A DNA stretch of 64,000 nucleotides, taken from the sequence record OR699282.2; one strand, written 5' to 3'. This DNA is from Escherichia phage BAU.Micro_ELP-22. The notes beneath the pieces were generated by a model. It had not been told where the DNA came from and searched no databases. It worked only from the letters and a program-made list of their open reading frames with translations. Positions 1 to 55,729 of this stretch are shown one piece after another. The position numbers were made by a program, and so were the translations under genes. Positions within the stretch are counted from its first letter, which is position 1. Each line of letters begins with the position of its first letter.

Positions 1-23
1 ATAAAAATAAAGATCCTGAATAA

Positions 24-242: not shown

Positions 243-253
243 GGTAAAAAGAA

Positions 254-2907: not shown

Positions 2908-2915
2908 GGTAAATT

Positions 2916-3690: not shown

Positions 3691-3694
3691 CATA

Positions 3695-3718
3695 AGCACC
3701 CGTTGGGTGCTTTTTTAT
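3695..3718 (+). terminator. intrinsic terminator (agcaccc-gtt-gggtgct + TTTTTT)
   Basis: 7-bp perfect stem plus T-run immediately after the nrdG stop. Confidence 0.6.
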
Positions 3719-3724
3719 TATGTA

Positions 3725-3732
3725 TATAAATA
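3725..3732 (+). promoter_or_regulatory. T4-type late promoter box TATAAATA
   Basis: Exact TATAAATA about 35 nt upstream of the first large structural gene (3767). Confidence 0.4.
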
Positions 3733-3766
3733 CATTAACTAATATCTAATTTATAAGGGATATATA

Positions 3767-13815: not shown

Positions 13816-16605
13816 ATGTTAAACAATAATATTGATAATATTGTACAACTTCTTTATGGGCATCACAAATTTATTGAAAGAAATACTGGTGATACAATAG
13901 ACCCAACAGTACAACATTATGTGGTGAATAATCAGGGTGTTTTGGCGAACAACCGTCATTTTATTAACTATTCTGCAATGGAAGGTCAACCAAACGGTGA
14001 CGGGACAACAGAAGGTCAAAGTCTATTAATTTTAGGATACATTTATGCGTATCTGGCAACAAATGATCCAATGTTTTTAGATAAAGCCAAATGGTACTGG
14101 GATGCATATCATCAGTACTTTTATGCTGGACGTGAATTACCAGATCCACCTACACCACTACAATGTAACTGGATAGTTAATGCCAAAGAACCTATATTGG
14201 CTAACTGGCCTTTAGCTGATGATGGATGGCCTACACATGGTGGTTTCAAGGGTGTAGAATTTACATTTACAAATGGACAATGTAAAATACCACATGGTGC
14301 ACCTTATTATGGTCAGTTCTTGGATAAAGTAACATTTGCATTCAAAGGTGCTTTAGCATGGAACCAAATAAATGCGTCAGTAAAAGCATTATTACCAGAT
14401 GGTAGTGTTGATTGGGATACACCAGGTGAACAATATGATGTTGACTGGATTATCGATTTCATGGGTAGAAAAATCGACTGGGATGGTAATATTTTAGCAG
14501 AAGGTTTTGACGAATCTGAAAAAGGAACTGTTCAATTAAAGAATACAACAATTAATGGTGTATATAAATTAAATTTTGCAAATCGTCAACCAGTAGAATA
14601 TGGTGGTGTGATAATTCAACGAAATGAAATGCAACACAACCGCCCACTTCATGTTCCAATTGATTTGGAATTTGCGGATAACGCATCAGATGCAGAATTG
14701 TGGTTTAGTGATGCTTCTTATTTGTTATATAAAATAACAAAAGAAAGAAAACATTATTTGGGTTGGAAATGTTCACTACTAACGTGTTATGCTTATGGTG
14801 ATATTGACTCCAGAGATAAATTTTTCAGACAAAGTACAATTGTAACCACACCATTCACTGATGGTATTTCCTATGAATATTTTTATCCAAGTGATGCTAT
14901 TGCTAAGTTTGGTAGAAATTCTCTAGGATATATTACTATCAGGCAAGACCAAAGTGCACAAAGTACAATGGAACAACAAGCTATTTGGTTCAGGGTCAAT
15001 GCTGATTCTAAATTACTTGTAGACTATGGTGGTGTATGTGATGATGGTAAGCCGTTATCATTTAAACCAGTACTGGAATTGTCAAAAACAAAAAATGACC
15101 ATGATGTTGTTCGTTATCGTTGTGGCTTACCGGAAAGTAAAGACCAAAATATCACACATTCATTAACACCTTTAAGTGCATTTGTTAGAGAAAAGAAAGC
15201 AGATGGTTCCCCTTATATAATTGCTGATAGTAGAATTGTTGTTCCTTATGGTGCAGCTACGTCCGAAATGATATATAGTACTGATATATTAGTTACACGC
15301 CGCGATACCATTAATCAGTTAGTTTGTGGTGAAGATGATGGTGCTGTTATTGGATTTTGGCTATTAGCAACAAATAAGTCTGAAGTTAAATCTTTTACCT
15401 ATCGTTCATATGAAGATGATTACAATATAAGAATTGTAGATGATAATGGTTGGAGATGGTGGTGGATGATTCCTGCAACACACGGGGAATGGACTACAAT
15501 CACACTAAGTCCCGATACATTACGTTTATCTGGGTATCAGCCAAATCATCCAAGTTCTGACCCAAGACCAGATGCACCAGTTTATAGTGAACTAGAAGAT
15601 ATTACTATTTTACCTGATACAACCCCAGTAGATGGTGTTACTGCAATAATTGATTGGTATTGTATTAATGACATTCCAGAATTATACACGGATGCTGACG
15701 GTGATGACTATACTATGACATTTTCAATAACAATTGCAGGTGAATCACCATATACTGCACAGTTAGGGGATTGTGTAATCAAAGATTATTTGTTAAACTC
15801 ATTGCATTACACACCAGGAACAATACCATTTTCTAACATCACTGACCCGTATGCGAACCAGTATTCAGGATGGCGTGGTTTACCGTATCCAGGTTATCAA
15901 TATCCTGTGATATATTGTTTTAAAGACCAGCCAGTAGATAACACACGCTTAGGAAACATGTTAAGCTTTATGAAAGATTCCCAAACATGGTTTACTCAAC
16001 AATTCGGTACTGTTGGTCCGTGTGCACAAGCATATGTTTGGAACCGCTGGGATAACTTAAAATATGGTGAACCAGATACATTTACTATGCTACATTGGGG
16101 TGATCAAGCATGGAGTGGGTATGAACCACGTGCGTTCTTTGGGGCTGCCAGAGCATGGCAAGAACTCGCAGAGAGAGGAATTGAACCACCAGCAGATCTT
16201 GTTGAATTTTGTGAGAATTGGATTCACTTTTTAATTCAATTTCAAAAAGATAATGATGGTCGTTCACCAACAATCTTCAATAAAGATGGCACAGTTGAAG
16301 GTCCAGATTGGGACTTTACAGGTCATATGTGTGGGTTGTGGTTAGCTGGGGCTTGTGCTGCTGGATTGGCTGGATGTAAAATAGAAGGTCTAACAACACT
16401 CGCTGATAACTTAGTTCTCGAACTTCAAAAGAATTATGTTATTGTAAATCCAGGTTCACCAATGAATGGTTCATGGAGTCCAGCAGTTAGAGAAGGTACT
16501 GATAATGGTATGTTTTTTGGTTTCTGGGCAGGTGAGATTATGCGTGGATTGGGATTATACTCAATGTACCGCTTAAACACACCAAATCGTTTCCGTGATT
16601 TATAA
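13816..16605 (+). CDS. large W/Y-rich protein (929 aa), putative tail-associated glycan-degrading enzyme
   Basis: Aromatic-rich composition (WYWDAYHQYFYAG, WRWWWMIP, GLWLAGACAAGLAG) reminiscent of alpha/alpha-toroid glycoside hydrolases; by impression only. Confidence 0.3.
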   Translation: MLNNNIDNIVQLLYGHHKFIERNTGDTIDPTVQHYVVNNQGVLANNRHFINYSAMEGQPNGDGTTEGQSLLILGYIYAYLATNDPMFLDKAKWYWDAYHQYFYAGRELPDPPTPLQCNWIVNAKEPILANWPLADDGWPTHGGFKGVEFTFTNGQCKIPHGAPYYGQFLDKVTFAFKGALAWNQINASVKALLPDGSVDWDTPGEQYDVDWIIDFMGRKIDWDGNILAEGFDESEKGTVQLKNTTINGVYKLNFANRQPVEYGGVIIQRNEMQHNRPLHVPIDLEFADNASDAELWFSDASYLLYKITKERKHYLGWKCSLLTCYAYGDIDSRDKFFRQSTIVTTPFTDGISYEYFYPSDAIAKFGRNSLGYITIRQDQSAQSTMEQQAIWFRVNADSKLLVDYGGVCDDGKPLSFKPVLELSKTKNDHDVVRYRCGLPESKDQNITHSLTPLSAFVREKKADGSPYIIADSRIVVPYGAATSEMIYSTDILVTRRDTINQLVCGEDDGAVIGFWLLATNKSEVKSFTYRSYEDDYNIRIVDDNGWRWWWMIPATHGEWTTITLSPDTLRLSGYQPNHPSSDPRPDAPVYSELEDITILPDTTPVDGVTAIIDWYCINDIPELYTDADGDDYTMTFSITIAGESPYTAQLGDCVIKDYLLNSLHYTPGTIPFSNITDPYANQYSGWRGLPYPGYQYPVIYCFKDQPVDNTRLGNMLSFMKDSQTWFTQQFGTVGPCAQAYVWNRWDNLKYGEPDTFTMLHWGDQAWSGYEPRAFFGAARAWQELAERGIEPPADLVEFCENWIHFLIQFQKDNDGRSPTIFNKDGTVEGPDWDFTGHMCGLWLAGACAAGLAGCKIEGLTTLADNLVLELQKNYVIVNPGSPMNGSWSPAVREGTDNGMFFGFWAGEIMRGLGLYSMYRLNTPNRFRDL

Positions 16606-16606
16606 C

Positions 16607-16635
16607 TTGACATAGAAAAAGTAATTATGTATAAT
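16607..16635 (+). promoter_or_regulatory. consensus sigma70-type promoter (TTGACA-17-TATAAT)
   Basis: Exact -35 and -10 hexamers with 17-nt spacer immediately after the 13816 stop. Confidence 0.5.
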
Positions 16636-16636
16636 C

Positions 16637-16667
16637 AGAGAACTTCATATGGAGTTCTCTTTTTTTA
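16637..16667 (+). terminator. intrinsic terminator (agagaact-8 nt loop-agttctct + TTTTTTT)
   Basis: 8-bp perfect stem and T-run; overlaps the predicted transcript start of the promoter above. Confidence 0.5.
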
Positions 16668-16679
16668 TAAGGTGATAAA

Positions 16680-17099
16680 ATGTTAAATGAACGTATTAAA
16701 AATGCACTACATGTATTGAACCAAGAAGTAAATTCTATTGATAAAAGTACTGACCGTTATAAAGTAATGCATGAAATCAAACAAGAATTGGAATCTATTA
16801 ATAAGGGAGAATGGTGGTATCTTCAGCCCGAATATCAAACTCGTGAATTAAACGATGTTGAAAAAGAAATTGTCAAATTCATCACTACTCGTTACTGTGA
16901 TACATCAGAGAATGATGTATCAGCGAACTTCAATCTTACTAAATTGGAAGTCGAAGAAAAATTCAATTTTGATTGGCTTGATTGGCTTGAAATGGTCATG
17001 GAACTAGAAGAAAAATTCAATGTTGAAGTTGATGAAAAGTTCGAGAATAATGAAACTAAGCTGTATGAACTAGCAGAACATATTCAAAAAATGCTGTAA
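16680..17099 (+). CDS. hypothetical acidic protein (139 aa)
   Basis: ORF with GGTG RBS-like sequence upstream; no motif. Confidence 0.45.
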   Translation: MLNERIKNALHVLNQEVNSIDKSTDRYKVMHEIKQELESINKGEWWYLQPEYQTRELNDVEKEIVKFITTRYCDTSENDVSANFNLTKLEVEEKFNFDWLDWLEMVMELEEKFNVEVDEKFENNETKLYELAEHIQKML

Positions 17100-35016: not shown

Positions 35017-37680
35017 ATGGCAGGAGATCTACTCTCACCTGGCGTTTCCATTTCAGTAACTGATGAAAGTATGAGTACCGCTGCTGCTCCTGGCACTGTA
35101 CCACTATTTGTAATCGCTACTGCTGAAGACAAACTTGTCCCAGGAAGCAGTGCAATAGCTGCGGGAACTACTAAAGCAAACGCTGGAAAACTACAGCTTC
35201 TAACATCACAAAAAAGCTCACTTGATACCTATGGTACACCAATTTTTCAAATGAATAACGGTTCTGTTGTTCAAGGTGATGAACTAAACGAATATGGCCT
35301 ACATGCAGTATATTCTTATCTAGGCATTACTAACCGTGCATATGTAATTCGTGCTGATATCGATCTAGCACAACTAGCACCAAGTGCTGAAGCACCAACT
35401 GGCCCAGTATCCAATGGTACTTTGTGGTTTGATACCGCACAATCACAAGTAGAAGCGTATGTAGCGAAGAAAGATAGTCCAAGCAGTTTTTATGATTGGC
35501 AACTTAAGCCAGTAACTATTGTAAGTGCTGAAGAAGTTGAAGATGTAAGTCTAGTAGGTTTAAATGTTGATGATTTAGTTCTACGTTACAAACCAAGCAA
35601 TGGTCAGATGCTAATGTATAAACGTTCTGCTTCTGGGCTAGTGCAAATGGAAACTTATCTATCACCAATTAACAAAGTTCCAGTTGGCTCAACTGTAGAA
35701 AAAGGTAACATTTGGATTCGTGATGGTTACACCCAAAATGGTTCAAACTATTTTGGTACTCGTTTTGTTATTAAACGTTATGCATCCCTAACTCAAGTTT
35801 GGAATATTGTACCAGCATATACTGGTAATTCATTCCAAGAAATTGAAGCGAAAAGTGGTGTACTAAACAATAGTTATATCGCATCTCGTTTTGATGAAGA
35901 TAGTAAGAGTTTCTCTTTCTATATTCAAAGTGCAAAACTAACAACAATTAGTGCTCCTGCTTTGCCACTTGGTGAAACTATTATTGAACAAGCAGGTGCT
36001 GATAGTTATATGACTTTTGTTTATTTGAATAAATCAGTTAAAGTACTAGCAGTTCCACAAGGCGGTGTTATTAATACCCAAACTATCATCAATAATCTAA
36101 ATGCAAATGCTGAAATTATTAACGATGGTTTTAAATTTAAACGTGAAACTAATGGTGGTTTAGTTGTTTCCAATACAAAAGGTTACAGTTTCAAAATCAC
36201 ACAAAGTGGTGATGATATTTTTGCTGAATCTGAACTACAAAAACTAACAGTAGATAGTAACAACTACTCTCTAATTAACGTGAATAACTTCCGTGTTAGT
36301 TATTCAGTACCACGTAGTGTAGCAAAAGAAGGAACTCTCTGGTATGATTTCGGGAACTCCGATAATCTAACTGTAACTATGTATGTTGCTGATGTTGCTA
36401 ATGATGAATGGGATCTAGTACAAGAAGAAAACAAATATGTACAAGTTGATGAACCAGCGGCTGACCGTTTAATTTGGGTTTGTCCTTTGTCTCAAGGCAT
36501 TGATGGTTATGATTTCTATCGTAACGTTGATGGTGAATGGGTTAAACTTGACAGTACTGATCAAAGTACACTAAATGGTATGATTTTCCAAGACTTTAAT
36601 TTCCCAAGCCAAGTTCCTGCTGCGGCATTGTATCAAAATGGTATGCTTGCAGTTGACCTAGGTAACACTGAAGGTGTTGTTAAGAAAATGGTTAATGGTC
36701 AATGGGAAGTTGTTAGTGGTGTAAGTCTTGATGGTGCTGGCCTATTTGGTCGTGCTGCACAACGTCAACTAGTAGTTGAAGCACTAGCTGCTGTTATTAT
36801 TGGTAATGATGACATTCGTTCTGAATTTATTGATTTTAACCTAATTTGTGTACCTGGTTACGTTGAAACACTTGATGAATGTGTAACTTTAAACACTGAT
36901 CGTAAAGAAACTGCATTTATTGTTACTGACGTTCCAGCACGTTTGAATCCAACTGGAAACGGTAGTGCTGTACAACAATGGGCTACTAATGCTAACAATG
37001 CACCAAGCAACGGTTCAGTTGGTCGTACAACTGCTTATGATTATGCTGCTCAGTATATGGGTTGGTGTCTAAGTACTAACGTTGATGGTGAAGAAGTTGC
37101 AGTTCCTGGTAGTACTATTGCAATGCGTACATATGCATACAGTGATAGTGTTAGTTATGTATGGTATCCACCTGCTGGTACAACTCGTGGTGTTGTAACA
37201 AACGCTGCAAGTACTGGTTTTATCAACAGCGAAGGTGAATATCAACCAGTAGTATACAACCAAGGTCAACGTGACGTTATGTATACTAACAACATTAACC
37301 CAATTGCAATGCGTCCTAACCGTGGTTTGCTTGTTTATGGAGATAAAACTCTATCTGCTAATCAAACTTCTGCACTAAGTCGTGTTAACGTTGCTCGTTT
37401 AGTTGTTTATATTCGTCGTCAACTAGAAATTATTTCCGAACCATTCCTATTCCGTTTGAATACTCCAAGTACTCGTCAGGAATTTAGTGGTGTAGTTAAT
37501 AGCTTCTTGGCTGAAATTGTTCAACAACAGGGTCTTTATAACTTCGCAGTGGTTTGTGATGAAAGTAACAACACCGCAGAGCGTATTGACCGTAATGAAC
37601 TTTGGATGGATATTGCAATTCAACCAACTAAGAGTATTAACTTCATTTACGTACCAATCCGTATCGAGAAAACTCAATAA
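35017..37680 (+). CDS. contractile tail sheath protein (T4 gp18-like), 887 aa
   Basis: N-terminal LLSPG and C-terminal YGDKT...FAVVCDESNNTAERIDRNELW...IQPTKSINFIYV match the T4 gp18 terminal domains from memory; GGAGGA RBS. Confidence 0.85.
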   Translation: MAGDLLSPGVSISVTDESMSTAAAPGTVPLFVIATAEDKLVPGSSAIAAGTTKANAGKLQLLTSQKSSLDTYGTPIFQMNNGSVVQGDELNEYGLHAVYSYLGITNRAYVIRADIDLAQLAPSAEAPTGPVSNGTLWFDTAQSQVEAYVAKKDSPSSFYDWQLKPVTIVSAEEVEDVSLVGLNVDDLVLRYKPSNGQMLMYKRSASGLVQMETYLSPINKVPVGSTVEKGNIWIRDGYTQNGSNYFGTRFVIKRYASLTQVWNIVPAYTGNSFQEIEAKSGVLNNSYIASRFDEDSKSFSFYIQSAKLTTISAPALPLGETIIEQAGADSYMTFVYLNKSVKVLAVPQGGVINTQTIINNLNANAEIINDGFKFKRETNGGLVVSNTKGYSFKITQSGDDIFAESELQKLTVDSNNYSLINVNNFRVSYSVPRSVAKEGTLWYDFGNSDNLTVTMYVADVANDEWDLVQEENKYVQVDEPAADRLIWVCPLSQGIDGYDFYRNVDGEWVKLDSTDQSTLNGMIFQDFNFPSQVPAAALYQNGMLAVDLGNTEGVVKKMVNGQWEVVSGVSLDGAGLFGRAAQRQLVVEALAAVIIGNDDIRSEFIDFNLICVPGYVETLDECVTLNTDRKETAFIVTDVPARLNPTGNGSAVQQWATNANNAPSNGSVGRTTAYDYAAQYMGWCLSTNVDGEEVAVPGSTIAMRTYAYSDSVSYVWYPPAGTTRGVVTNAASTGFINSEGEYQPVVYNQGQRDVMYTNNINPIAMRPNRGLLVYGDKTLSANQTSALSRVNVARLVVYIRRQLEIISEPFLFRLNTPSTRQEFSGVVNSFLAEIVQQQGLYNFAVVCDESNNTAERIDRNELWMDIAIQPTKSINFIYVPIRIEKTQ

Positions 37681-37686
37681 AACACT

Positions 37687-37714
37687 AAGGGAACCTTTTG
37701 GTTCCCTTTTTTAT
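37687..37714 (+). terminator. intrinsic terminator (aagggaacc-tttt-ggttccctt + TTTTTT)
   Basis: 9-bp perfect stem and T-run after the sheath gene. Confidence 0.7.
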
Positions 37715-37759
37715 TGATTAAAATTAAATACCTTTATATTGATGTTATAAAGGAACATT

Positions 37760-37885
37760 ATGGATATGGAAGAAATACTAAAAAAAACAATACAAGATGT
37801 CAGTAAAATAGTTTTAACTCAGTTGGAATCAGTACACATACTAAATATATTTTTAAAAAATTTGGAAGATTGTCGGTATAATTGA
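37760..37885 (+). CDS. small ORF (41 aa) in the sheath-tube intergenic region
   Basis: Own translation MDMEEILKKTIQDVSKIVLTQLESVHILNIFLKNLEDCRYN with AAAGGA RBS; speculative. Confidence 0.2.
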   Translation: MDMEEILKKTIQDVSKIVLTQLESVHILNIFLKNLEDCRYN

Positions 37886-38075
37886 AAAATACGAAGTATA
37901 CACAAATGGAAAATGGTCTATATCAGTAAACTATATTGACCACACTAAACGAAAAAGATACTTATATTGTGTTAATATTAATTGGTTCCCTGTTGATGAC
38001 ACTTTAGTTAATTAAAAATATACTTCCAGATAGATAAATAATATAAAGATGTCATTCCATAATAGGAGAATATAA

Positions 38076-45398: not shown

Positions 45399-45794
45399 AT
45401 GCAATATAATTATCGTGAACTAGTTGAAGCGTTAGACGAAATTACCGGAAGAGATGAAGACGAAAGTTTTTCAGTTGAAGTTGAATCCGATGTTGTAGCA
45501 GTTGATGTTCTTAAGGATATTACCAAATGTCTTATTGATATTGTTGATAAGATTAAATCTGGTGAAGACCAAAAAGAAATTGTAGATAAACTACAAAAAG
45601 CCTGTGACATTTTGTCTGACATTCGATATAATGATGAAAGTACTGAAGTTGCTGATGAAGAAGTGTTGGAAGCCATTGCAGGTTGTTTTGGAACTGAAGG
45701 TATGGGACCAACAATTGACAAAGAAGGCGTACAACACTATAATGAGCCTGGTGCACCATCTTATGCTGCACGTCAAGGTTTTGTTGGAGACTAA
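45399..45794 (+). CDS. hypothetical acidic protein (131 aa)
   Basis: ORF coupled to upstream stop. Confidence 0.45.
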   Translation: MQYNYRELVEALDEITGRDEDESFSVEVESDVVAVDVLKDITKCLIDIVDKIKSGEDQKEIVDKLQKACDILSDIRYNDESTEVADEEVLEAIAGCFGTEGMGPTIDKEGVQHYNEPGAPSYAARQGFVGD

Positions 45795-45797
45795 TAT

Positions 45798-46178
45798 ATG
45801 TTTCCAGAACCATCACATAACAGTACTGAATATCAAAATAATGTACTTTCCAAAGTTAGGGAAGTACATGAATCAGATTCAGAAATAACAGACCGTATGC
45901 TTCTGATGTCAATTTTTGAAAATTTCAGAACTGGCGGTGGTTTACGTCTTAGCAAGTTTGGGTATGGAATTTGTAAAGAAAATAATCTTTATGAATTTAC
46001 AAAAATCCCCTTGCAAAGAGAATTTAAAAGTTCTATAATGTTTACATCACTTGACAGAATATGTACTTCACCTTATTATGTTGAAGGTCAGTACATATAT
46101 CTGACAGATGCAATGATAATAACTGAATTAACATTGTGTTGTGATGATTTTAAACAGTTATTTTCTATTCATATGTAA
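45798..46178 (+). CDS. hypothetical protein (126 aa)
   Basis: ORF; no motif. Confidence 0.4.
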   Translation: MFPEPSHNSTEYQNNVLSKVREVHESDSEITDRMLLMSIFENFRTGGGLRLSKFGYGICKENNLYEFTKIPLQREFKSSIMFTSLDRICTSPYYVEGQYIYLTDAMIITELTLCCDDFKQLFSIHM

Positions 46179-46201
46179 GAAAAATGAATTAAAAATAAAT
46201 G

Positions 46202-46229
46202 TTGACAAGATAGAATGATGTGATACAAT
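46202..46229 (+). promoter_or_regulatory. consensus sigma70-type promoter P1 (TTGACA-16-TGaTACAAT)
   Basis: Exact -35, 16-nt spacer, TACAAT with upstream TG. Confidence 0.55.
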
Positions 46230-46295
46230 AAGCATCAGACATAAAGTTTTCAAGCGACACAAGATGTGAGTTTGAAAAAAAAAGAAAAAAAGTGA

Positions 46296-46323
46296 TTGAC
46301 AAGTTGAAACGATGTGATATAAT
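46296..46323 (+). promoter_or_regulatory. consensus sigma70-type promoter P2 (TTGACA-16-TGaTATAAT)
   Basis: Near-duplicate of P1 (TTGACAAG...GATGTGATATAAT) 94 nt downstream. Confidence 0.55.
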
Positions 46324-46492
46324 GTTCACATCAAGACAGCAAAGAGATTTACCTTTTAAACACACGGATGATTCATGAAGTAACAAAGGAACTGATAAGT
46401 TAAATTATTTTAACACAGTTCCTTTACTTTTGCCCACGGATTGGCTATAATAGAAACTTAAACGATTTTATCCAACAAAAGGAAATATATAC

Positions 46493-47818
46493 ATGACTAC
46501 TCAAAACGATATCCTGAACGTTAAACTGACTCCAAAGAAAGCTAAAGAAGCAATGGCACTAGCTGACATGATTCAAGATAGCCTGATGATTTGGGGTAGC
46601 CCAGGTATCGGTAAGTCTGCAATCGCTCGTCAATACGCTGATGAAAATTACCCACTGCGTAAAGATAACGTAGCTAAAATCGAGTTCATGAAACAACAAA
46701 TCGAAGCTGACCCTGAAAATGCTGATCAGCTACGTCGTGAACTGGCTGCATTTGAAGCAAAACTAATCGACCAAGATACTAACTTTATCGATTTCCGTTT
46801 GTCTCAAATCGAACCAAGTGACCTTCGCGGTATTCCAGTACCAGAGAAGCTTTTCCGTAAAACTGACGGTTCTCTTCTGAAAGAATCTGAGCTTGCCGAA
46901 GCAAAAGATTATGTAGCTGAAACTGCGGTAGTATGGGCTGCACCTAAAGTTCTGAAATTGTCCGAAGATTGGAAAGGTGTTATTCTGTTTGACGAAATTA
47001 ACTCTGCAATGCCTATTGTTCAGGCAGCGTCTTATCAGCTAATCCTCGACCGTTGTGTTGGTGAGATGAAGCTACCTAAGACTGCACTGATTCTTGCAGC
47101 AGGTAACCGTGAAACTGATGGCGGTGTAACTTTCTCTCTTGCTACACCACTGCGTGACCGTATGACTCACATTGAGATGATTCCTTATCATCAAGATTGG
47201 ATTAACGATTATGCGATTGCAAAACGTTTGAACCCAGCAACTGTTGCGTTCATCAACAACACTGGTTCTAAGTACTTTAACACACTTAGTCCACAAGATC
47301 CTTCTCACAGTGGTGGTACTTCTCCACGTTCATGGGAAGCAGTAGCACGCTACGAAGATCTCAAGAAAACTAAGACAATTGATAAAGAAGTGTTCCGTGC
47401 AATGATTGCTGGTCGTGTTGGTGAAGGTGTTGCAACTGAATACATTGAGTACGTTGAGAACGTTGCTAAACTACCAGATACTATGTCTATTCTGTCTGGT
47501 GAAATCAAAGAAATCGACGCAACGCTGGATATTTCTGCGAACTACTTTATCACTCTGAACTTGGTTTATAAAATTATCGACCTGTTCAATGAGAAGCAAG
47601 AACAACGTCTACCAGTGGAAGAATGGGGTAAACTGTGTAACAACTTCATCACCTTCCTAGACCATAACTTCTCTGCAACTCAAGCAGAACTGGCAGTACT
47701 GGCAATTCGTACCATCACGCTTCATAAGGTTGCGATTTCCATTAAAGATGTACCAGCGTTTAAAGATTTCATCGCTAAGTACTCTGATCTTGTACGTAAA
47801 GCACGCTCTCTTGGCTAA
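46493..47818 (+). CDS. AAA+ ATPase, MoxR/CobS-like (441 aa)
   Basis: Walker A MIWGSPGIGKSAIARQY and Walker B VILFDEINSA; codon choice (ctg, cgt, ggt, atc, ttc, aaa) differs visibly from neighbours. Confidence 0.7.
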   Translation: MTTQNDILNVKLTPKKAKEAMALADMIQDSLMIWGSPGIGKSAIARQYADENYPLRKDNVAKIEFMKQQIEADPENADQLRRELAAFEAKLIDQDTNFIDFRLSQIEPSDLRGIPVPEKLFRKTDGSLLKESELAEAKDYVAETAVVWAAPKVLKLSEDWKGVILFDEINSAMPIVQAASYQLILDRCVGEMKLPKTALILAAGNRETDGGVTFSLATPLRDRMTHIEMIPYHQDWINDYAIAKRLNPATVAFINNTGSKYFNTLSPQDPSHSGGTSPRSWEAVARYEDLKKTKTIDKEVFRAMIAGRVGEGVATEYIEYVENVAKLPDTMSILSGEIKEIDATLDISANYFITLNLVYKIIDLFNEKQEQRLPVEEWGKLCNNFITFLDHNFSATQAELAVLAIRTITLHKVAISIKDVPAFKDFIAKYSDLVRKARSLG

Positions 47819-47839
47819 TTAACAAAGAGTTGTTGACAA

Positions 47840-47868
47840 GAAGGATGCCTAATGGTATCCTTCTTTTA
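47840..47868 (+). terminator. intrinsic terminator (gaaggatgcc-taat-ggtatccttc + T-run)
   Basis: 10-bp stem with one G-U pair plus TTTTATC. Confidence 0.5.
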
Positions 47869-47892
47869 TCTTAACTAAACGAGGAAATATAC

Positions 47893-49317
47893 ATGTCAGA
47901 TAACAAATCTACTTCAAGATTCAATGAAGTATCTCCGGCACTCCAGAAAGAATGTCAAGAACGTCTGGTTCTGGCTCGTACATCTTTGATGTTAACTGCA
48001 CCATTCTTTGGTGTACTCGCTTCACGTTTACGTCCAGTTCCTAATAATACATGGTGTCGTACTCTAGCAGTGGATGGTAAACATCTATTCTACAACGTAG
48101 AATTTGTAATGGGCATTCAAGACCCATCTAAAAAGAAAGAATATGAAGAAGCTATTCGTGAAAAGCACCCTGAAGTTACAGACGAACAATTAAAAGAAAT
48201 GACTGAAGGTTTGACTGATGAAAACCTTGTTGCTGTAATTTGTCATGAAATTCTACACTGTGCTTACGATCACTTCCTTCGTCGTGGTATGCGTGATCCG
48301 CAACGTTATAACCGTGCAGCGGATTATGCCATTAACCAAATCATCGTTCGTGAGAAAATTGGAAAAATCCAAAGTTCATGGTTGTATGATAAAAAATATG
48401 AAGGTATGACCGCAGAAGAGATTTACATTCTTCTTGAAGAAGAAGAACAAAAAGAAGATGGTGAAGGTGAAGGTCAACCACAAAGTGGTGGTGGCGAAGG
48501 TGAAGGTAAAAATCGCGGTACTTTTGGCGATATTAAAGATGGTAAGGGTAAACCAAAAGGTACTACCATTGACCAGCATGACGTTCCACAAGAAGGTCAA
48601 GAGGGTGGTTCAAGTGAACAGCAAAAACGTGATTACATGGATGATTTCAAAACAGCAATGATGAATGCTGCTCGTGCAGGTGGTACACCAGCAGAAATCG
48701 CTCGTATGATTAACAACTTTAAAGAACCAAAGATTGACTGGCGTTCAAAACTTCAACGTACACTTCGTAGTTGGTTGAAGTCTGATGCAACATATCAAAA
48801 TCCGAATCGTCGTTCTTGGGGTGCAGGTTTTGGTTCTAATGGTTCATTCTATGGTAATCCAATTTACCCAGGGATGAAACCAGATGATGATATTGATATT
48901 GCGATTGCACTAGATGCTTCTGGGTCTATTTCTGAAGATATGCTTCGTGATTTCATTAGTGAAGTTCTTGGCATCACTAAACAATTCAAACAGTTTAAGA
49001 TTCGTATCATGACTTTTGATACTGAAGTTTATACTGTAAAGGATTACAAAACTGGCGAAGAACGTAAGATTCTGGAATATCCAGTAAAAGGTGGTGGTGG
49101 TACTGACTTTGAAGCAGTATGGGTTCATATGAAGAACGACAACTACAAGCCTAAACAGCTTGTAATGTTTACTGATGGTGAACCGTGGCAGTCATGGGGT
49201 GATCCAAACTACTGTAAAACACTGTTCGTGATTCACAGTAACCCAAATAAAGTTGCACCATTTGGTGAGACTGTACACTACGAATATGAAGCTGATAAAA
49301 AGCGTCAACGTAGTTAA
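47893..49317 (+). CDS. vWA-domain protein with N-terminal HExxH putative metallopeptidase-like domain (DUF2201-type partner of MoxR ATPases)
   Basis: ICHEILHCAYDH (HExxH) in the N-terminal half, Gly/Glu-rich linker, then vWA MIDAS-like DIAIALDASGSIS and ...MFTDGEP. Confidence 0.6.
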   Translation: MSDNKSTSRFNEVSPALQKECQERLVLARTSLMLTAPFFGVLASRLRPVPNNTWCRTLAVDGKHLFYNVEFVMGIQDPSKKKEYEEAIREKHPEVTDEQLKEMTEGLTDENLVAVICHEILHCAYDHFLRRGMRDPQRYNRAADYAINQIIVREKIGKIQSSWLYDKKYEGMTAEEIYILLEEEEQKEDGEGEGQPQSGGGEGEGKNRGTFGDIKDGKGKPKGTTIDQHDVPQEGQEGGSSEQQKRDYMDDFKTAMMNAARAGGTPAEIARMINNFKEPKIDWRSKLQRTLRSWLKSDATYQNPNRRSWGAGFGSNGSFYGNPIYPGMKPDDDIDIAIALDASGSISEDMLRDFISEVLGITKQFKQFKIRIMTFDTEVYTVKDYKTGEERKILEYPVKGGGGTDFEAVWVHMKNDNYKPKQLVMFTDGEPWQSWGDPNYCKTLFVIHSNPNKVAPFGETVHYEYEADKKRQRS

Positions 49318-49330
49318 GTACTAAATAATG

Positions 49331-49358
49331 AGAACGGAATTTTCCGTTCTCTTCTTTT
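49331..49358 (+). terminator. intrinsic terminator (agaacgg-aatttt-ccgttct + T-rich)
   Basis: 7-bp perfect stem plus CTTCTTTTAT. Confidence 0.55.
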
Positions 49359-49364
49359 ATAAGT

Positions 49365-49392
49365 GGGACAACTTATAAAAATATGATATAAT
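49365..49392 (+). promoter_or_regulatory. promoter, gtGGGACA-n16-TGATATAAT class
   Basis: Same architecture as the sites at 19256 and 30352. Confidence 0.4.
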
Positions 49393-49426
49393 AGTTAATG
49401 TACCAATATACATGGAGAGTATTAAA

Positions 49427-49672
49427 ATGGAACAAGAAAATAATCAAATTCAACTAACCCTTCTAGACCTAATCAATGCTGCAAAAATCATGGAAGCTGC
49501 TGTTGCACGAAACACCTTTAAAGTTGAAGAACTTGTCGAGGTTGCTCCAGTTGTATCTAAATTTGTTTCTTTTGCAAATGTCGCTCTTGAAGATATTAAA
49601 GCACAAGAAGATGCAGCTAAAGAAGAAGCTGAATCACAAGATAGTGAAACTCAAGAAGATAAAGGAGAATAA
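49427..49672 (+). CDS. small acidic protein (about 81 aa)
   Basis: Start moved to the Met with GGAGAG RBS (ORF track 49412). Confidence 0.45.
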   Translation: MEQENNQIQLTLLDLINAAKIMEAAVARNTFKVEELVEVAPVVSKFVSFANVALEDIKAQEDAAKEEAESQDSETQEDKGE

Positions 49673-49674
49673 TT

Positions 49675-50331
49675 ATGGCAGCTATTCGTCATGTTGGTGT
49701 AATGCGTAATACAGGTTCTCGTGTTTTTGTTGTTTGGCGTTCACTACCAGATGATCCTGAACACTGCCTTATCGTTTATCGTGATTCACTACCAGAAGCA
49801 TATGTTCACGCAGTAACTGATATTGTTATGGGTCATGGTCAATCTAATATTGATTTGTGGGAAGTAATGCATAAAATTGGTTATCTCGATGGACGCAAAA
49901 TGCTAGATGTTCTACACAACATGCAGCATCTACGTCGCGTTCGTACTTGTGACATTGATATGCACACTGGTGGTAATAATAAAATTTCTCTTGATGTTCT
50001 AAACAAAGCATTAGATGAGAATCAAGCGAAAGTACAAGAAGATGGTAAAGTAAAAGACTTTAACCCATTCAATCCACAAGAAGCAGACACTAAAGTAGAA
50101 GAAGCTACTATTGTAGAAAAACTTCTCTCTGATGCACAAAAATTTGAACAACTGGCTAAAGAACATTATGAACGTGCATACAATTTAGAGCCAAGCTTGC
50201 GTCCGCAAACACAAGTTGTTGAACAACCGAAAGATAGTAAAACAATTTATCTAGAAATTCCAGAAGGTATTTCACAGACTAAAGCTATTGAGAAAGTAAA
50301 ACAACTATTTGCAGAACGTAAAGCAAAATAA
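49675..50331 (+). CDS. hypothetical protein (218 aa)
   Basis: ORF coupled to upstream stop; no motif. Confidence 0.45.
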   Translation: MAAIRHVGVMRNTGSRVFVVWRSLPDDPEHCLIVYRDSLPEAYVHAVTDIVMGHGQSNIDLWEVMHKIGYLDGRKMLDVLHNMQHLRRVRTCDIDMHTGGNNKISLDVLNKALDENQAKVQEDGKVKDFNPFNPQEADTKVEEATIVEKLLSDAQKFEQLAKEHYERAYNLEPSLRPQTQVVEQPKDSKTIYLEIPEGISQTKAIEKVKQLFAERKAK

Positions 50332-50334
50332 AAT

Positions 50335-50928
50335 ATGAAAAAGAATGAATTAGATGAAGCAATTAAAGGTTTATCTAATGTATGTTTTAGTGGCGGGGCA
50401 GCAGGTGCTGACCGCCTTTTTTCTATCTATGCAAAAAATAATGGATTTGAAGTTATTAATTTTTCATTCAAAGGTCATGAGCATAGTGTAGATGAAAGTA
50501 CTATATTAGAAATACCATCCAATATTCTATCTGATATTTCTATATTAAATCAACTAAACATTGCATGTTACTCGTTGCAGCGAAAAGTGCCAAAGCCTGG
50601 TTCTTATGTTTACAACTTACTTGCAAGGAATAGTTATCAGATACTTAATACAGAAAGAATATATTGTATTGCAAATATCACATCACCAACTAAGGTAAGT
50701 GGTGGTACTGCATGGGCAGTACAGATGTATATGGATTCAGTTGAAAATCCTGAAATTTATTGTTATGATATGAATTCACGTTCAGTATTTTATTTCGATA
50801 CAGTACTGAAAGAGTTCACACAAACATTCGTCGTTCCAGCACCACATGGTAACTGGACTGGTATTGGTTCACGCAATGCCACAGAAAAACATATGGAACA
50901 TTTTATTACATTTTTCAAGGAAGAATAA
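50335..50928 (+). CDS. Rossmann-like protein with glycine-rich loop (SLOG/LOG/DprA-like)
   Basis: VCFSGGAAGADRLFS near the N-terminus resembles the phosphate-binding loop of SLOG-type domains; weak. Confidence 0.25.
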   Translation: MKKNELDEAIKGLSNVCFSGGAAGADRLFSIYAKNNGFEVINFSFKGHEHSVDESTILEIPSNILSDISILNQLNIACYSLQRKVPKPGSYVYNLLARNSYQILNTERIYCIANITSPTKVSGGTAWAVQMYMDSVENPEIYCYDMNSRSVFYFDTVLKEFTQTFVVPAPHGNWTGIGSRNATEKHMEHFITFFKEE

Positions 50929-51857
50929 TGAAACAACTACAAGAACTATATCAAAAAATTCTAGATGAAGGCGTAGAAAGCGTTGACCGTACTGGTGTTG
51001 GAACAATCAAACTTATCGGTCAACAAATGCGTTTTGACCTTAAAGATGGTTTCCCAGCAGTGACGACAAAACGTCTAGCTTGGAAAGCAATGACTTCAGA
51101 ATTACTATGGTTTATTGAAGGTTCCCATGATGAGCGTCGCCTTTGTGAAATTTTGCATGGAACTCGTGATACAGAAAAGAAAACTATTTGGACAGATAAT
51201 TACCTAAATCAAGGCGTTGCTCTTGGTTATACTGATGGTGAGTTAGGTCCAGTGTATGGTAAGCAATGGCGTGAATGGGAAGATTATAAATTTAGTTCCA
51301 GTACTGAAGAAATTCAAGAATTAAAAGATAAAGGATACAAAGTTATCGATTATACTGGTTCACATGGTGTTGTTATGAAACGTACAACTGACCAATTACA
51401 GGAACTAATCAATGGTATAAATTCCGATCCATATGGTCGTCGCCATATTCTAAGTGCATGGAACGTTGGTGAGCTTGATGATATGACGTTGCCACCTTGT
51501 CATAGCTTTGTACAATTTTGTGTAGTACAAGGGAAACTAAGCTGCATTCTACATCAAAGATCCGCTGATCTATTTTTGGGAGTTCCATTTAATATCAGTA
51601 GTTATTCACTACTAACTCATATGATTGCACAAATTACGGGTTTAGATGTTGGTGAATTTATTTGGAATGGTGGTGATTGCCACATTTATAAAAACCACGT
51701 TGAACAAGTAAAAGAACAACTACAGAGAAAACCTCGTGAATTACCTGAATTATGGCTTGATCCTACAATTACTAATATTGAAGATTTCACAATGGATTCT
51801 TTCAAATTAATGAATTACAATCCAATGCCAACAATTAAAGCACCGATGGCTGTATAA
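50928..51857 (+). CDS. td: thymidylate synthase (ThyA family), uninterrupted
   Basis: DRTGVGT, LPPCHSFVQF (catalytic Cys), HQRSADLFLGVPFNISSY and GGDCHIY match ThyA along its length; contains a 30-40 aa insertion relative to E. coli ThyA; 1-nt overlap with upstream stop. Confidence 0.9.
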   Translation: MKQLQELYQKILDEGVESVDRTGVGTIKLIGQQMRFDLKDGFPAVTTKRLAWKAMTSELLWFIEGSHDERRLCEILHGTRDTEKKTIWTDNYLNQGVALGYTDGELGPVYGKQWREWEDYKFSSSTEEIQELKDKGYKVIDYTGSHGVVMKRTTDQLQELINGINSDPYGRRHILSAWNVGELDDMTLPPCHSFVQFCVVQGKLSCILHQRSADLFLGVPFNISSYSLLTHMIAQITGLDVGEFIWNGGDCHIYKNHVEQVKEQLQRKPRELPELWLDPTITNIEDFTMDSFKLMNYNPMPTIKAPMAV

Positions 51858-51860
51858 AAG

Positions 51861-51891
51861 AAAAGGGAGAACTGATGTTCTCCCTTTTTTA
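51861..51891. terminator. bidirectional intrinsic terminator at the convergent gene junction
   Basis: gggagaac-tgat-gttctccc flanked by an A-run on one side and a T-run on the other; lies between the td stop (51857) and the minus-strand fibre gene stop (51892). Confidence 0.6.
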
Positions 51892-53856
51892 TTATCTAAT
51901 TGTTACCAATGTTCTTCCGTCGAAACGTACATCAGGTGTTGAAGGTATACTGAACACTACGTTAGTGCCGTTAAACGTCACGCTATCGACCTCAACACGA
52001 GTATAGACACCAGGACTAACCTGTTCCTGTATCTCTGCTGTGACGATGTTTGAGGCTGTTACAGTAAGGGTGTAGTAGTTACCACTTAAGACCCAAGATG
52101 AAATGGTAAAAGCATCGGTTCTCACTGAACCTGAACCAATTGGAACCCATTGACCTTGAACTTTTTGCATTGAAGTACGCTCGGTATTGGAGTATGCAAT
52201 CATACCATCAACGCCAACAGAGTTATCAATAGTAGCTAGTACTGGTAATTGGATACCATATCTATTAAAACGTGTTCTTATAGTTCCATTATCATAGATA
52301 CTTACATCAGCATAATTACCCATTGATAGTTTTAAATCAGAACTAACTAATTGGATTGTACTTTGATTAGTAGCACTTTCTAATGTAATTATACCATTAG
52401 CTAATAGATTTATATTTTTAAATTTATTAGTTGTTCCATTAAAATTAGTATTAGCTGTAAAAGTACTAACACCATTAACTGTAATGGTATCTGATGCAGC
52501 ATCACCTAATGTGGTATTACCTTGAATGTTCAAATTACCACTAGCAGTTATATTACTAGCTGATGTATCCCCAGTTAATGTACTTGTACCATCAACAACA
52601 ATATTACCATGAAACGCACTTTCGCCATTTTTAAATTCAACTTGAACTTTATTCATTGAACTAAATGAAATAATATTACTACTAGCACTTAATCCCACAT
52701 TAGTATTAGTTGCATTATCAAATCTTAGTACTGGCGTTGATGCAGGTGTTGATGTTGATTGATATAATGTTAGTGTTGAATTATTAATTCGAACACGTTC
52801 TGTACCAGCAGTACTGAACCCAATTGCGTCATCGGCTGGATGAAATATACCAGTATTAGCATCGGACCACTTAGTTGGGTCATTACCTGGGTTATTCGTT
52901 GGGTCAAACGGATTATTGTTAAATGTCAATGCTGGTGCTGCTGCACTTCCATACACCACCCCAAAACGCCCAGAGCCGTCTGTTCCATCATTATACATGG
53001 AATCACCAGTTCTACGTAAACACTCAATCACAACGTTATCTATGGATGTTTGAACGGTCCCTGCGTTTGTCCTAAATTGACGATGATTTGCAATCATTAC
53101 AGTATTGTCATATAATACTGAAGCAGCGGAAATGCTTGTTCTTGACTGGCGTAGACGTATGTTTTTATCTTCAGTTATAATAATCCAATCACCATCTGAT
53201 AGTGCGGTTTGGTTCATTGGAACACCTGAAGCAAATGGTTTGGTTAAGTCAGCATCTGTTGCTAAATTTTTAAGACCATCATGACCAGTACTCGGAATAG
53301 ATGCAGGAATAATTCTAGCGAAAGCGTATGTTACTAGTTTAGCACCAGATATATTTGGATTAGAGTCAACATAATATAAAATTTCAATCCAATTACCTTG
53401 TCCAGTTGGATTTGTAGGAGTAAATGTAACAGGACTTGTTTGTGGATTATTTGCTTCATAATGGGCTTGTGCGGCATCCATAATACCACGAACAACATAA
53501 TAATCACCATTTAGTGATGCTGCTGGTGCTGGTAGTGGAGTTTGTGCTAAAGGTGGATCAATATCATCTGGAATAGGATTATATGTACCAACAAATTGTA
53601 AACCACTAGTTACTGAATCTGGTAATTGGGAAGTAAGAAGTTTACCATTTGCATCTAAGTTTGCAAAACGGCGATATGCCATCGTACCATCTTCAAAATC
53701 CAGAACACCTTCAAACGATTTCCATTCCTTATTGTATCTAATCATCCCTGATCTTATTACATCAGCGGTTTCTTTTGATGGTGCTTTCGGTAACTCTAAA
53801 AAAGATTTACTATCAATAATTACACCACCATCACCTCTAATTCGATTTATACTCAT
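51892..53856 (-). CDS. tail fibre protein (654 aa)
   Basis: Thr/Ser/Asn/Gly-rich with beta-helix-like repeats (TLTGDTSASNITASGNLNIQGNTTLGDAASDTITVNGVSTF); ATG with GAGGAAA RBS; TATAAAT late-like box about 25 nt upstream. Confidence 0.6.
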   Translation of the reverse strand: MSINRIRGDGGVIIDSKSFLELPKAPSKETADVIRSGMIRYNKEWKSFEGVLDFEDGTMAYRRFANLDANGKLLTSQLPDSVTSGLQFVGTYNPIPDDIDPPLAQTPLPAPAASLNGDYYVVRGIMDAAQAHYEANNPQTSPVTFTPTNPTGQGNWIEILYYVDSNPNISGAKLVTYAFARIIPASIPSTGHDGLKNLATDADLTKPFASGVPMNQTALSDGDWIIITEDKNIRLRQSRTSISAASVLYDNTVMIANHRQFRTNAGTVQTSIDNVVIECLRRTGDSMYNDGTDGSGRFGVVYGSAAAPALTFNNNPFDPTNNPGNDPTKWSDANTGIFHPADDAIGFSTAGTERVRINNSTLTLYQSTSTPASTPVLRFDNATNTNVGLSASSNIISFSSMNKVQVEFKNGESAFHGNIVVDGTSTLTGDTSASNITASGNLNIQGNTTLGDAASDTITVNGVSTFTANTNFNGTTNKFKNINLLANGIITLESATNQSTIQLVSSDLKLSMGNYADVSIYDNGTIRTRFNRYGIQLPVLATIDNSVGVDGMIAYSNTERTSMQKVQGQWVPIGSGSVRTDAFTISSWVLSGNYYTLTVTASNIVTAEIQEQVSPGVYTRVEVDSVTFNGTNVVFSIPSTPDVRFDGRTLVTIR

Positions 53857-53943: not shown

Positions 53944-55680
53944 TTAAACTACAGAAACTCCACTCATTGAAGGTGGAACGATTTGTTCAGCAATTAATAA
54001 TAAATTAGTTACTGTAAACTTACCACCATGTGACATTAACGTAATAGGTGTTCCATTAGTTACTAGGTTACCATTTTCATCAACACTTAAAAATGTATTA
54101 AATGAAATAGTATCAACCGTGATAGTTGGTGTTCTAACTTGATTGATATTATTAAATTGAGTATTTGTAAAATTAATAGCAAAACTCATATTAGACGAAC
54201 TAGTAGTCCATGTACCGTATATATTTAATTTGAAATTTAGAGAGGAATTGAAATTATAAACATTTAACTTATTACTTGTTGTATTGAAGAAACTATCTAG
54301 TGTTCCACTAGTGGGTGTGAATGATTTAAGTATTTGAATTAAATTTTGTTCAATTCCATCAGTGAATTGTATATTTAAGTTTGAATAATATAATTCTCTT
54401 TTTCGACGAATTAGGTTAGTAGTATTATTACCATTAACAAATAATCCAGTACTATCTGATGTTAATATATTACCAGAGGTATTACTGATTTTAGATGAAA
54501 TTACATTAGCGTCAATAGATATACCATTTCCCGCAGTATATGAGGATGGCCCAGATGGAACATACAACCCATTTACGTCAGTTGTTAACGTATTTCCTGG
54601 CGTTGTGCTTATTTTAGTTGAAATTGTTTCAGAACTAATAGATATACCAGTACCACCAACGTAATTTATTCTTGTATTAGGTACAAATAATCCAGTACTG
54701 TCAGTAGATAGTATATTACCAGAAGTAGAACTAATTTTAGTACTGATTACTTCACCACTGATAGAAACACCGGAACCAGCACTATAAGATACTGAATTAT
54801 CAGGCACAAATAAACCATTACTTGTAGAAGATAGTATGTTTTCTGATGTCGGGTCAACCTTCACACTTATTACATCATCACTAATTGAAATTCCATTTCC
54901 TCCATTATAAGTAATTGAGCTATTAGGTACGAATAATCCATTAATATCTGATGTTAGTATATTACCAACAGTAGAACTAATTTTAGTACTTATTTGGTCA
55001 TCACTAATAGTAATGCCAGTACCAGCATTATAAGTTATCGAATTATCCGGCACGAATAGACCAGTACTATCAGTTGTAAGGATATTTCCTAAAGATGTGC
55101 TTATTTTTGATGATATAATATTATTATCTATTTTAATACTTTCACTACCTGTATATGTTACGGTATTATCAGGTACATATAAACCATCTTCGGCAATCGT
55201 GAGGATGTTACTAGGTGATGTACTGATTTTAGTTGAGATAGTATTATCACTTATTGATACACCCGTGCCACCAGAATACACAATTGAGGTATTAGGTACA
55301 TATAAACCATTAGCATCAGATATCAGAATATTTCCAGAATTTAAACTCACTTTAGCAGATATAACATTTGTATTAACATCTATACCATTTCCAGCTACAT
55401 AACTTACAGTATTATCAGGAACATACAAACCATTAGAATCATTACTAAGAATATTGCCTTGTGTTGAACTTATTTTTGTGGATATTAAATTAGAAGATAT
55501 TGATATACCAGTTCCACCTTGATAGTTAATAGTATTATCTGGAACATATAAACCATCACTTTCATGAATTAAAATATTTTTATTTTTAGTACTAATATCA
55601 GGCACTGGTATCTTGCCTATTAGTTCGCCGTCATAACTGATATCACCATTTACAATAATATCTGTTCTTATATTATACAT
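53944..55680 (-). CDS. tail fibre protein built from about 12 tandem 33-aa repeats
   Basis: Repeats of the form GNILT.DSTGLFVPDNS.TY.AGTGI.IS...ISTKIS.T.; start moved to ATG (55680) with AGGAAA RBS (ORF track used TTG at 55704). Confidence 0.6.
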   Translation of the reverse strand: MYNIRTDIIVNGDISYDGELIGKIPVPDISTKNKNILIHESDGLYVPDNTINYQGGTGISISSNLISTKISSTQGNILSNDSNGLYVPDNTVSYVAGNGIDVNTNVISAKVSLNSGNILISDANGLYVPNTSIVYSGGTGVSISDNTISTKISTSPSNILTIAEDGLYVPDNTVTYTGSESIKIDNNIISSKISTSLGNILTTDSTGLFVPDNSITYNAGTGITISDDQISTKISSTVGNILTSDINGLFVPNSSITYNGGNGISISDDVISVKVDPTSENILSSTSNGLFVPDNSVSYSAGSGVSISGEVISTKISSTSGNILSTDSTGLFVPNTRINYVGGTGISISSETISTKISTTPGNTLTTDVNGLYVPSGPSSYTAGNGISIDANVISSKISNTSGNILTSDSTGLFVNGNNTTNLIRRKRELYYSNLNIQFTDGIEQNLIQILKSFTPTSGTLDSFFNTTSNKLNVYNFNSSLNFKLNIYGTWTTSSSNMSFAINFTNTQFNNINQVRTPTITVDTISFNTFLSVDENGNLVTNGTPITLMSHGGKFTVTNLLLIAEQIVPPSMSGVSVV

Positions 55681-55702
55681 ATATTTTTCCTTATAATGAA
55701 AC

Positions 55703-55729
55703 AAAAAAAGGTCAACTATTGTTGACCTT
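55703..55729 (-). terminator. intrinsic terminator on minus strand
   Basis: Minus-strand hairpin aaggtcaac-aatag-ttgacctt followed by TTTTTTT after the 55736 gene. Confidence 0.55.

Follow-up and report, generated by a model that had tools for sequence, protein, structure and literature searches.

SLOG proteins and their phage relatives

In DprA, YspA and LOG proteins, the "GSR"-type strand of the SLOG fold comes first and the SGxAxGxD strand second. DprA has further domains at its N- and C-termini, enzymes of the LOG family act as phosphoribohydrolases on nucleoside monophosphates, and the SLOG sensor domain of ThsA (Thoeris) binds 3'cADPR. ThsA belongs to the same superfamily as the phage protein described here and sets a precedent for a SLOG pocket that holds an ADP-ribose-derived immune signal. 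A further family, cpYpsA (PF12694, "circularly permutated YpsA SLOG family"), presumably includes the "putative molybdenum carrier protein" of Syntrophus aciditrophicus (PDB 3imk). In the YpsA clade, GxD/E is the predicted substrate-binding signature (PMC6459960). Viral YpsA-like SLOG domains were surveyed by Iyer, Burroughs, Anantharaman and Aravind (Viruses 2021, 2022; PMC7824862, PMC9503650); in the parts of these papers drawn on here the functional assignments are predictions only, the domains being proposed to process or sense ADP-ribose derivatives, and SLOG-guanylate-kinase fusions are reported.

Here the analysis concerns a 197-aa protein encoded in a 64,000-nucleotide stretch ("the window") of Escherichia phage BAU.Micro_ELP-22 (OR699282.2), an Asteriusvirus (PBECO4/121Q-type jumbo phage) sharing 99.7% identity with UB, JP4 and PBECO4 and 98.3% with 121Q. 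Like the viral YpsA-like SLOG and YAcAr proteins as portrayed in the portions of the surveys used, members of its family are phage-encoded, enriched in jumbo phages and mostly stand-alone, carry a GxD signature and are occasionally fused to NADAR, DUF4326 or polyvalent-protein modules. The family is already catalogued as PHROG 768 and, going by those same portions, falls within the viral SLOG class of the two comparative-genomics papers.

The SLOG gene, its junction with thyA and the transcription unit

The gene encoding the SLOG-fold protein occupies positions 50335..50928 on the plus strand (197 aa, PHROG 768, identical to 121Q gp567 by tblastn). Its TAA stop codon (50926-50928) has one base, 50928, in common with the ATG (50928-50930) of thyA, so that the initial annotation was right to place the ORF directly upstream of td with a 1-nt overlap. 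The thyA/td gene (50928..51857, plus strand) encodes a canonical thymidylate synthase of 309 aa, as judged by Pfam (Thymidylat_synt, E 4e-101) and by comparison with E. coli ThyA (E 9e-81), with the PCH, SAWN, PFNI and C-terminal KAPMAV motifs conserved and the catalytic motifs intact. A ~33-residue insertion relative to E. coli ThyA (aa 119-151 of the phage protein) splits the alignment in two blocks. The Shine-Dalgarno-like sequence AAGGAAGA at 50917-50924 lies within the 3' end of the SLOG gene, so thyA has its own putative ribosome-binding site, from which it would be translated. The 1-nt overlap was discarded as a sign of functional coupling and carries little information, since overlaps are routine in the window (20 of 83 same-strand neighbour pairs overlap and 31 of 83 lie no more than 5 nt apart). 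The junction also varies among relatives, with a 2-nt gap in RaK2 and one or two small ORFs inserted in GAP32 and XaC1.

A consensus scan for promoters and hairpins covered positions 45500-52500. A terminator-like hairpin after the vWA/metallopeptidase gene (49330-49351, plus strand), a sigma70-like promoter with an extended -10 (49365-49392, plus strand) and a 12-bp-stem hairpin in the interval between thyA and the convergent gene (51861..51888) led us to propose a probable unit of four genes on the plus strand, encoding an 86-aa acidic protein (49412..49672), a 218-aa protein (49675..50331), the SLOG protein and ThyA. The promoter is probably the start of this unit and the distal hairpin probably a bidirectional terminator closing it, ahead of a convergent tail-fibre-like gene on the minus strand (51892..53856); the SLOG gene would thus be transcribed from ~49.37 kb as the third of four genes, with thyA last. 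Both upstream proteins are confined to RaK2-like phages, and the model of the 218-aa protein, an N-terminal SH3/KOW-like barrel followed by helices, gave no functional clue.

Several further features of this region were recorded. Sigma70-consensus promoter-like sites number 35 in 45500-52500 as against 24.8 +/- 5.4 expected from shuffles; they are dense at 45604-46451, upstream of an AAA ATPase gene (46493..47818), and two of those in this cluster agree with the consensus at 12 of 12 positions (TTGACA-N17-TATAAT, 45715-45743; TTGACA-N16-TATAAT, 46296-46323). The region 46493..49317 encodes this MoxR-like AAA ATPase, followed by a terminator-like hairpin (47838-47865), and then a protein with a DUF2201_N metallopeptidase and a DUF2201/vWA region (Pfam 2e-35 and 7e-21); the pair is N4 gp24-/gp25-like according to notes on RaK2. 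The DUF2201/vWA protein contains a Glu/Gly-rich low-complexity stretch; PHROG 1314 and numerous GenBank entries call it "HNH endonuclease", apparently an annotation error passed on from record to record. On the minus strand, 53944..55704 encodes a 586-aa protein with about a dozen tandem ~35-aa repeats ("...GNILxxDxxGLYVPDN(S/T)..."), presumably a tail-fibre or whisker component.

Comparison with dihydrofolate reductase

In T4, frd lies immediately upstream of td. This analogy of position is all that speaks for a non-canonical dihydrofolate reductase (DHFR) or another folate-cycle enzyme in the frd slot, a reading that deserves practically no credence. The two genes are alike only in the slot upstream of td and its stop-start overlap, being unrelated in sequence and fold: no DHFR similarity was found in Pfam, NCBIfam or PDB sequence searches, and fold searches with the SLOG protein returned no DHFR, in agreement with the earlier remark that the protein does not resemble DHFR. 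In addition, a tblastn search with RaK2 Frd located a canonical frd, 54-56% identical, in every Asteriusvirus checked, adjoining RNase H at ~100 kb from td (16422-16952 in JP4, 253483-254013 in PBECO4), and frd is also encoded by RaK2 (gp148) and CBB (CBB_313). The DHFR or folate-enzyme reading was rejected on these grounds.

Distribution of the family

By tblastn, the SLOG gene was found in 85 phage records, including RaK2-like jumbo phages (of enterobacteria, Erwinia and Xanthomonas), Agrobacterium phage Atu_ph07, Sinorhizobium phage Phosso, Caulobacter phage Cr30, crAss-like phages and the N4-like Klebsiella phage Pylas. A word-indexed search gave 106 matching proteins, and an exhaustive profile search gave 2,809 representatives at 50% identity (1,965 at E <=1e-10), mostly stand-alone proteins of 175-210 aa. 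Together with 15 invariant columns in the family alignment, these counts indicate that ORF 50335..50928 is a real conserved gene and no chance ORF. When the family profile was used for another word-indexed protein search, no further named or Pfam-annotated relatives appeared. Some variants, of the Phosso type, reach 304 aa through a ~100-aa C-terminal extension for which Pfam was blank; a candidate homologue of this extension was dismissed at an hhalign probability of 0.1%.

Scanning 185,579 species genomes with one stringent peptide pattern yielded 13 loci, of which Flavobacterium, Myroides and Paenimyroides account for 11. Flavobacterium sp. xlx-214 (locus L102) and Paenimyroides ummariense (L109) have the same gene order by ORF lists, and Pfam annotation of the former places the SLOG gene before a WYL-WCX regulator and topA, with housekeeping genes on the flanks. 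Specifically, the chromosomal homolog at L102 4986-6482 (27-31% identity) is directly upstream of the regulator and topA, and the flanking genes are miaB, a sigma54 activator and lptE.

Motifs, fold and circular permutation

Motif conservation was assessed in an alignment of 63 sequences (A1). The glycine-rich loop FSGGAAGADRLF of the 197-aa product (aa 18-29; 50386..50421, plus strand) has S19, G20, A22, G24 and D26 invariant and contains the GxD signature of the YpsA-like clade as G24-A25-D26. The R98-N99-x-x-Q102 helix motif (50626..50640, plus strand), with R98 and Q102 invariant and N99 in 61/63, is by motif order what we take to be the counterpart of the DprA "RNR" and LOG "RK" motifs. 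A second glycine loop, SGGTAWAVQ (aa 122-130; 50698..50724, plus strand), has G123, T125 and A128 invariant and W127 in 61/63, with Q at position 130 in 56 sequences, E in six and V in one; it appears to sit where LOG has PGGxGTxxE and DprA has SGS. The segments SGGAxGAD (19-26) and SGGTAWA (122-128) are thus invariant or nearly so throughout. Finally, the C-terminal strand GIGSR (aa 176-180; 50860..50874, plus strand) has G176, I177, G178 and R180 invariant.

The protein folds into a Rossmannoid alpha/beta sandwich of three layers, and the structures nearest to it are those of SLOG members. A glycine-rich loop follows a core strand, and further on another strand leads into a second conserved loop and a helix. 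The S19-G-G-A-x-G24-A-D26 motif directly follows the first strand, and G176-I-G-S-R180 is on the last strand, which precedes the last helix. From the strand order of the model, the first SLOG strand and helix have been moved to the C-terminus, as in cpYpsA, so that the order of the GSR and SGGAxGAD strands is reversed around the chain ends. By the model and the de-permutation scores given below, GIGSR is the first strand of the SLOG fold in its displaced position, the hallmark of the circular permutation.

The structurally closest protein was 3imk, ahead of DprA, although family HMMER profiles did not recover it from the PDB. The phage family exceeds 3imk and cpYpsA in length by ~40 residues and has a helical insert at aa ~57-102 as well as an additional beta-hairpin at 150-164. 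The permutation was also examined by shifting aa 166-197 to the N-terminus. In this order the scores of short-linker relatives against Pfam DprA rose from 15.8 to 23.9 bits (P0089) and from 16.2 to 24.6 bits (P0095), with the alignment lengthened by ~30 profile positions over the GSR strand. The four best PDB matches of the de-permuted family profile were DprA chains of Strep. pneumoniae and H. pylori (E 0.12-0.26), with a collinear GIGSR...SGGAxGAD alignment, whereas the profile in native order found no DprA chains. The de-permutation scores are individually weak; being consistent with the strand order of the model and the match to 3imk, they lead to the assignment of a permuted, cpYpsA-like SLOG. 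The window protein is therefore a SLOG domain that stands alone, is circularly permuted and belongs to the YpsA/cpYpsA/DprA branch.

Database thresholds and the "DprA-like" label

At the level of sequence the protein stands outside PF12694, PF10686 and PF02481, as all matches are below the gathering score. Pfam YAcAr (PF10686), itself a SLOG family, gave 20.2 bits against a gathering score of 28.2; the match is partial (aa 6-44, profile positions 21-60 of 66), the glycine loop being the sole segment matched, and the score did not gain from de-permutation. For cpYpsA (PF12694, gathering 26.2 bits), no match to the window protein was obtained at E up to 1, and the best relatives reached 17-19.5 bits, all below gathering. 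DprA/Smf (PF02481, gathering 29.6 bits) did not match the window protein in native strand order; relatives scored 15-26 bits in native order and up to 24.6 bits after artificial de-permutation. Nor was there a match to Pfam LOG (PF03641): compared with LOG and PpnN (YgdH), the window protein is permuted and, in the register deduced for PGGxGTxxE, the Glu position is Gln in 56/63 sequences. The initial proposal of a SLOG/LOG-type nucleotide-binding domain thus holds for the SLOG fold, through structural neighbours and motifs, and fails for the LOG family. PDB sequence searches with the protein and the family profile gave WD-repeat designs and an epimerase fragment as best matches, which were judged spurious. 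NCBIfam and PADLOC returned zero matches, so the window protein is no recognised defence-system component.

PHROG 768, named "DprA-like DNA recombination-mediator protein", was matched significantly (E 1.3e-26; aa 4-161 aligned with positions 23-181 of the 191 in the profile). Taken literally, the name implies an ssDNA-binding mediator that loads a UvsX/RecA-type recombinase or protects ssDNA, replacing UvsY. The motifs, the gene order gp47-gp46-SLOG-peptide deformylase in Cr30, the WYL-topA context in Flavobacteriaceae and the absence of UvsY from RaK2 would all suit such a role. However, all Pfam DprA matches are below gathering (29.6 bits) and the PDB E-values are 0.1-0.3; and compared with the DprA/Smf Rossmann domain (including Shosta ShosA), the protein is permuted and has none of the additional N- and C-terminal domains of DprA. 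It is acidic (pI 5.75, net charge -4), a weak argument, and basicity is no consistent trait of the family (median pI 6.7, above 8 in 19/63). Moreover, 3imk is nearer to it in structure than DprA is, and the nucleotide-metabolism, NAD-salvage and NADAR contexts described below would be left unexplained. We therefore regard a recombination mediator as unlikely, and the "DprA-like recombination mediator" label of PHROG 768 and GenBank as unsupported and probably misleading.

Gene neighbourhoods

Proteins encoded within 5 kb of the SLOG gene were clustered for 88 loci, representing 28 SLOG lineages at 60% identity. The commonest neighbour was a T4 gp1-type dNMP kinase, present in 13/28 lineages (Pfam DNMK 44-62 bits against a cutoff of 27.1). 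It is immediately upstream of the SLOG gene in 9/28 lineages and 31/80 loci, usually overlapping it by 1-34 nt, and four of these nine lineages have no tail-sheath gene downstream. A thyA neighbour was found in only two of the 28 lineages, both RaK2-like. The prevalent coupled partner is thus the dNMP kinase and not thyA, whose adjacency is a lineage-specific placement in an early nucleotide-metabolism operon and shows no direct partnership with ThyA. The kinase pairing is itself partly inherited synteny among related megaphages.

In the window, a T4 gp1-type dNMP kinase gene (34296..34922, Pfam DNMK 44 bits) is directly followed by the tail sheath gene (35017..37680), and this junction is the slot of the kinase-SLOG-sheath arrangement in Atu_ph07-like megaphages. 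The comparison suggests that the SLOG gene may have moved, or been lost and regained, between Asteriusvirus-type and Atu_ph07-like lineages. Around ~33000-38000 of the window, annotation coordinates of JP4 (PQ330092.1) are 1 nt off, owing to an indel between both genomes.

Other phages showed further contexts, such as dCMP deaminase ... SLOG ... NadM-Nudix ... NAMPT ... PhoH, or an adenylosuccinate-synthetase-like gene, SLOG, one ORF and a histidine phosphatase gene, with PRTase_3 and TelA further on. In a metagenomic phage (L015, 3503-4885), a protein of the adenylosuccinate-synthetase family (Pfam 8e-29) is encoded directly upstream of SLOG, with histidine phosphatase, PRTase_3 and TelA genes in the vicinity. 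No NADAR or Macro gene adjoins the SLOG gene in the window. Coupling to thyA or dNMP kinase is not reported in the sections of the Iyer et al. surveys consulted, nor are the virion-RNAP fusions described below.

These neighbourhoods bear on the possibility, which we consider real if on the doubtful side, that the protein is a dNMP-pool enzyme or a regulatory subunit working with thymidylate synthase and dNMP kinase, for example an N-glycosidase that clears non-canonical or unwanted (d)NMPs ahead of their phosphorylation, or a component of a dNTP-synthesis complex that senses nucleotides. Translational coupling to thyA in the window, a kinase (DNMK above gathering) immediately upstream in nine lineages, four of them without the downstream sheath gene, and the dCMP deaminase and adenylosuccinate-synthetase-like genes near SLOG in other phages all point this way, as does the nucleoside-monophosphate phosphoribohydrolase activity of LOG-family enzymes. 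The SLOG-guanylate-kinase fusions noted by Iyer et al., in the parts of their work drawn on, fit as well. Yet thyA adjacency is limited to the RaK2-like lineage and broken by small ORFs in GAP32 and XaC1, gene overlaps are routine in the window genome, and phage nucleotide-metabolism genes cluster with many unrelated early genes; in addition, the LOG catalytic Glu position is usually Gln, and fusions to NADAR, DUF4326, ART and an injected virion RNA polymerase would go unexplained. The initial annotation had taken coupling to td to suggest a role in nucleotide metabolism: the overlap is uninformative and thyA adjacency is RaK2-like only, and what lends the idea support is the dNMP-kinase coupling in 9/28 lineages.

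Fusions to large proteins and proposed function

Fusions are a small minority in a family of mostly stand-alone proteins. In the virion RNA polymerase of Pylas, SLOG is at aa ~980-1144, N-terminal to the RNAP domains, and in a crAss-like phage it forms the C-terminus of a 4,329-aa protein. A 2,277-aa protein (L097) contains NADAR, SLOG and DUF4326, the NADAR and DUF4326 matches being weak and below the Pfam gathering scores. Others of 2,942 aa (SLOG, then NADAR), 4,050 aa (a polyvalent protein with SprT-like, ART-PolyVal, SF1 helicase, DUF7831 and SLOG), 3,021 aa (SLOG, then a 2OG-Fe(II) oxygenase) and 368 aa (a histidine phosphatase, then SLOG) were also found. The 4,329-aa protein (L004, crAss-like cr113_1, NC_055896.1) includes a DFDID motif, and its RefSeq name for the whole protein is "DprA-like DNA recombination-mediator protein"; the 1,595 codons inspected at 2-4786 contain 18 in-frame TAG codons, consistent with TAG-to-Gln recoding.

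The NADAR, DUF4326 and ART fusions and the NAD-salvage neighbours agree with the description of viral YpsA-like SLOG domains given by Iyer et al., so far as the passages drawn on extend. A phage NADAR reverses DarT1 DNA ADP-ribosylation (PMC11257639). A literature search found no experimental work on phage SLOG proteins as anti-defence factors. The presence of one SLOG copy per low-copy injected protein argues for catalysis and against stoichiometric sequestration, and the large number of invariant polar residues is in keeping with a defined ligand pocket. The reading that we favour, though with somewhat less than even confidence, is that the SLOG protein is an enzyme that processes a ribosyl linkage in a nucleotide or ADP-ribose compound, with an ADPr-type substrate. 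By analogy with other SLOG structures, the SGGAxGAD and SGGTAWA loops, with D26, R98, N99, Q102, T125, W127 and R180, would form one pocket holding the phosphoribosyl part of the nucleotide; the protein would act as an enzyme and not as a stoichiometric binder, and the linkage would be processed as in LOG-type SLOG enzymes. Given the Gln at the LOG Glu position in 56/63 sequences, a LOG-like reaction would depend on a different base, D26 being a candidate, or the protein may only bind its ligand. The most probable substrate class would be NAD+/ADP-ribose-derived molecules from host defences, either soluble signals or ADP-ribosyl adducts; a (deoxy)nucleoside monophosphate, with dNMP kinase or thymidylate synthase sharing in its handling, would come a close second. 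The coupling to dNMP kinase and thyA supports the nucleotide-metabolism idea about as well as the ADP-ribose contexts support theirs.

A speculative proposal, which we hold to be unlikely as it stands, would unite both lines: an N-glycosidase or "gatekeeper" in deoxynucleotide supply, co-translated with dNMP kinase in most lineages or with thymidylate synthase in RaK2-like phages, that destroys or senses aberrant or defence-modified (d)NMPs, such as ADP-ribosylated ones, before phosphorylation. If true, nucleotide-pool quality control would be tied to counter-defence, which would explain the metabolic coupling as well as the NADAR, AlkB-like and ART fusions.

Implications

For the window alone, the outcome is mainly a corrected annotation, to SLOG and not DHFR, and the recognition that the position next to thyA is lineage-specific. 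Added here to the catalogued family are an explicit circular permutation, the dNMP kinase as prevalent partner, fusions to two unrelated kinds of giant virion protein, the WYL-topA context in Flavobacteriaceae and caution on the "DprA-like recombination mediator" label. A function, once established, would serve to annotate a domain of ~2,800 representatives (50% identity), which is found among jumbo phages, megaphages and T4-like phages and also within virion proteins of the N4-like and crAss-like groups. A dNMP-directed activity, if true, would add an extra step to the classical T4-type scheme of dNTP synthesis, and a hydrolase of ribosyl linkages directed at immune signals or adducts derived from ADP-ribose would, if true, be a new class of phage counter-defence enzyme.
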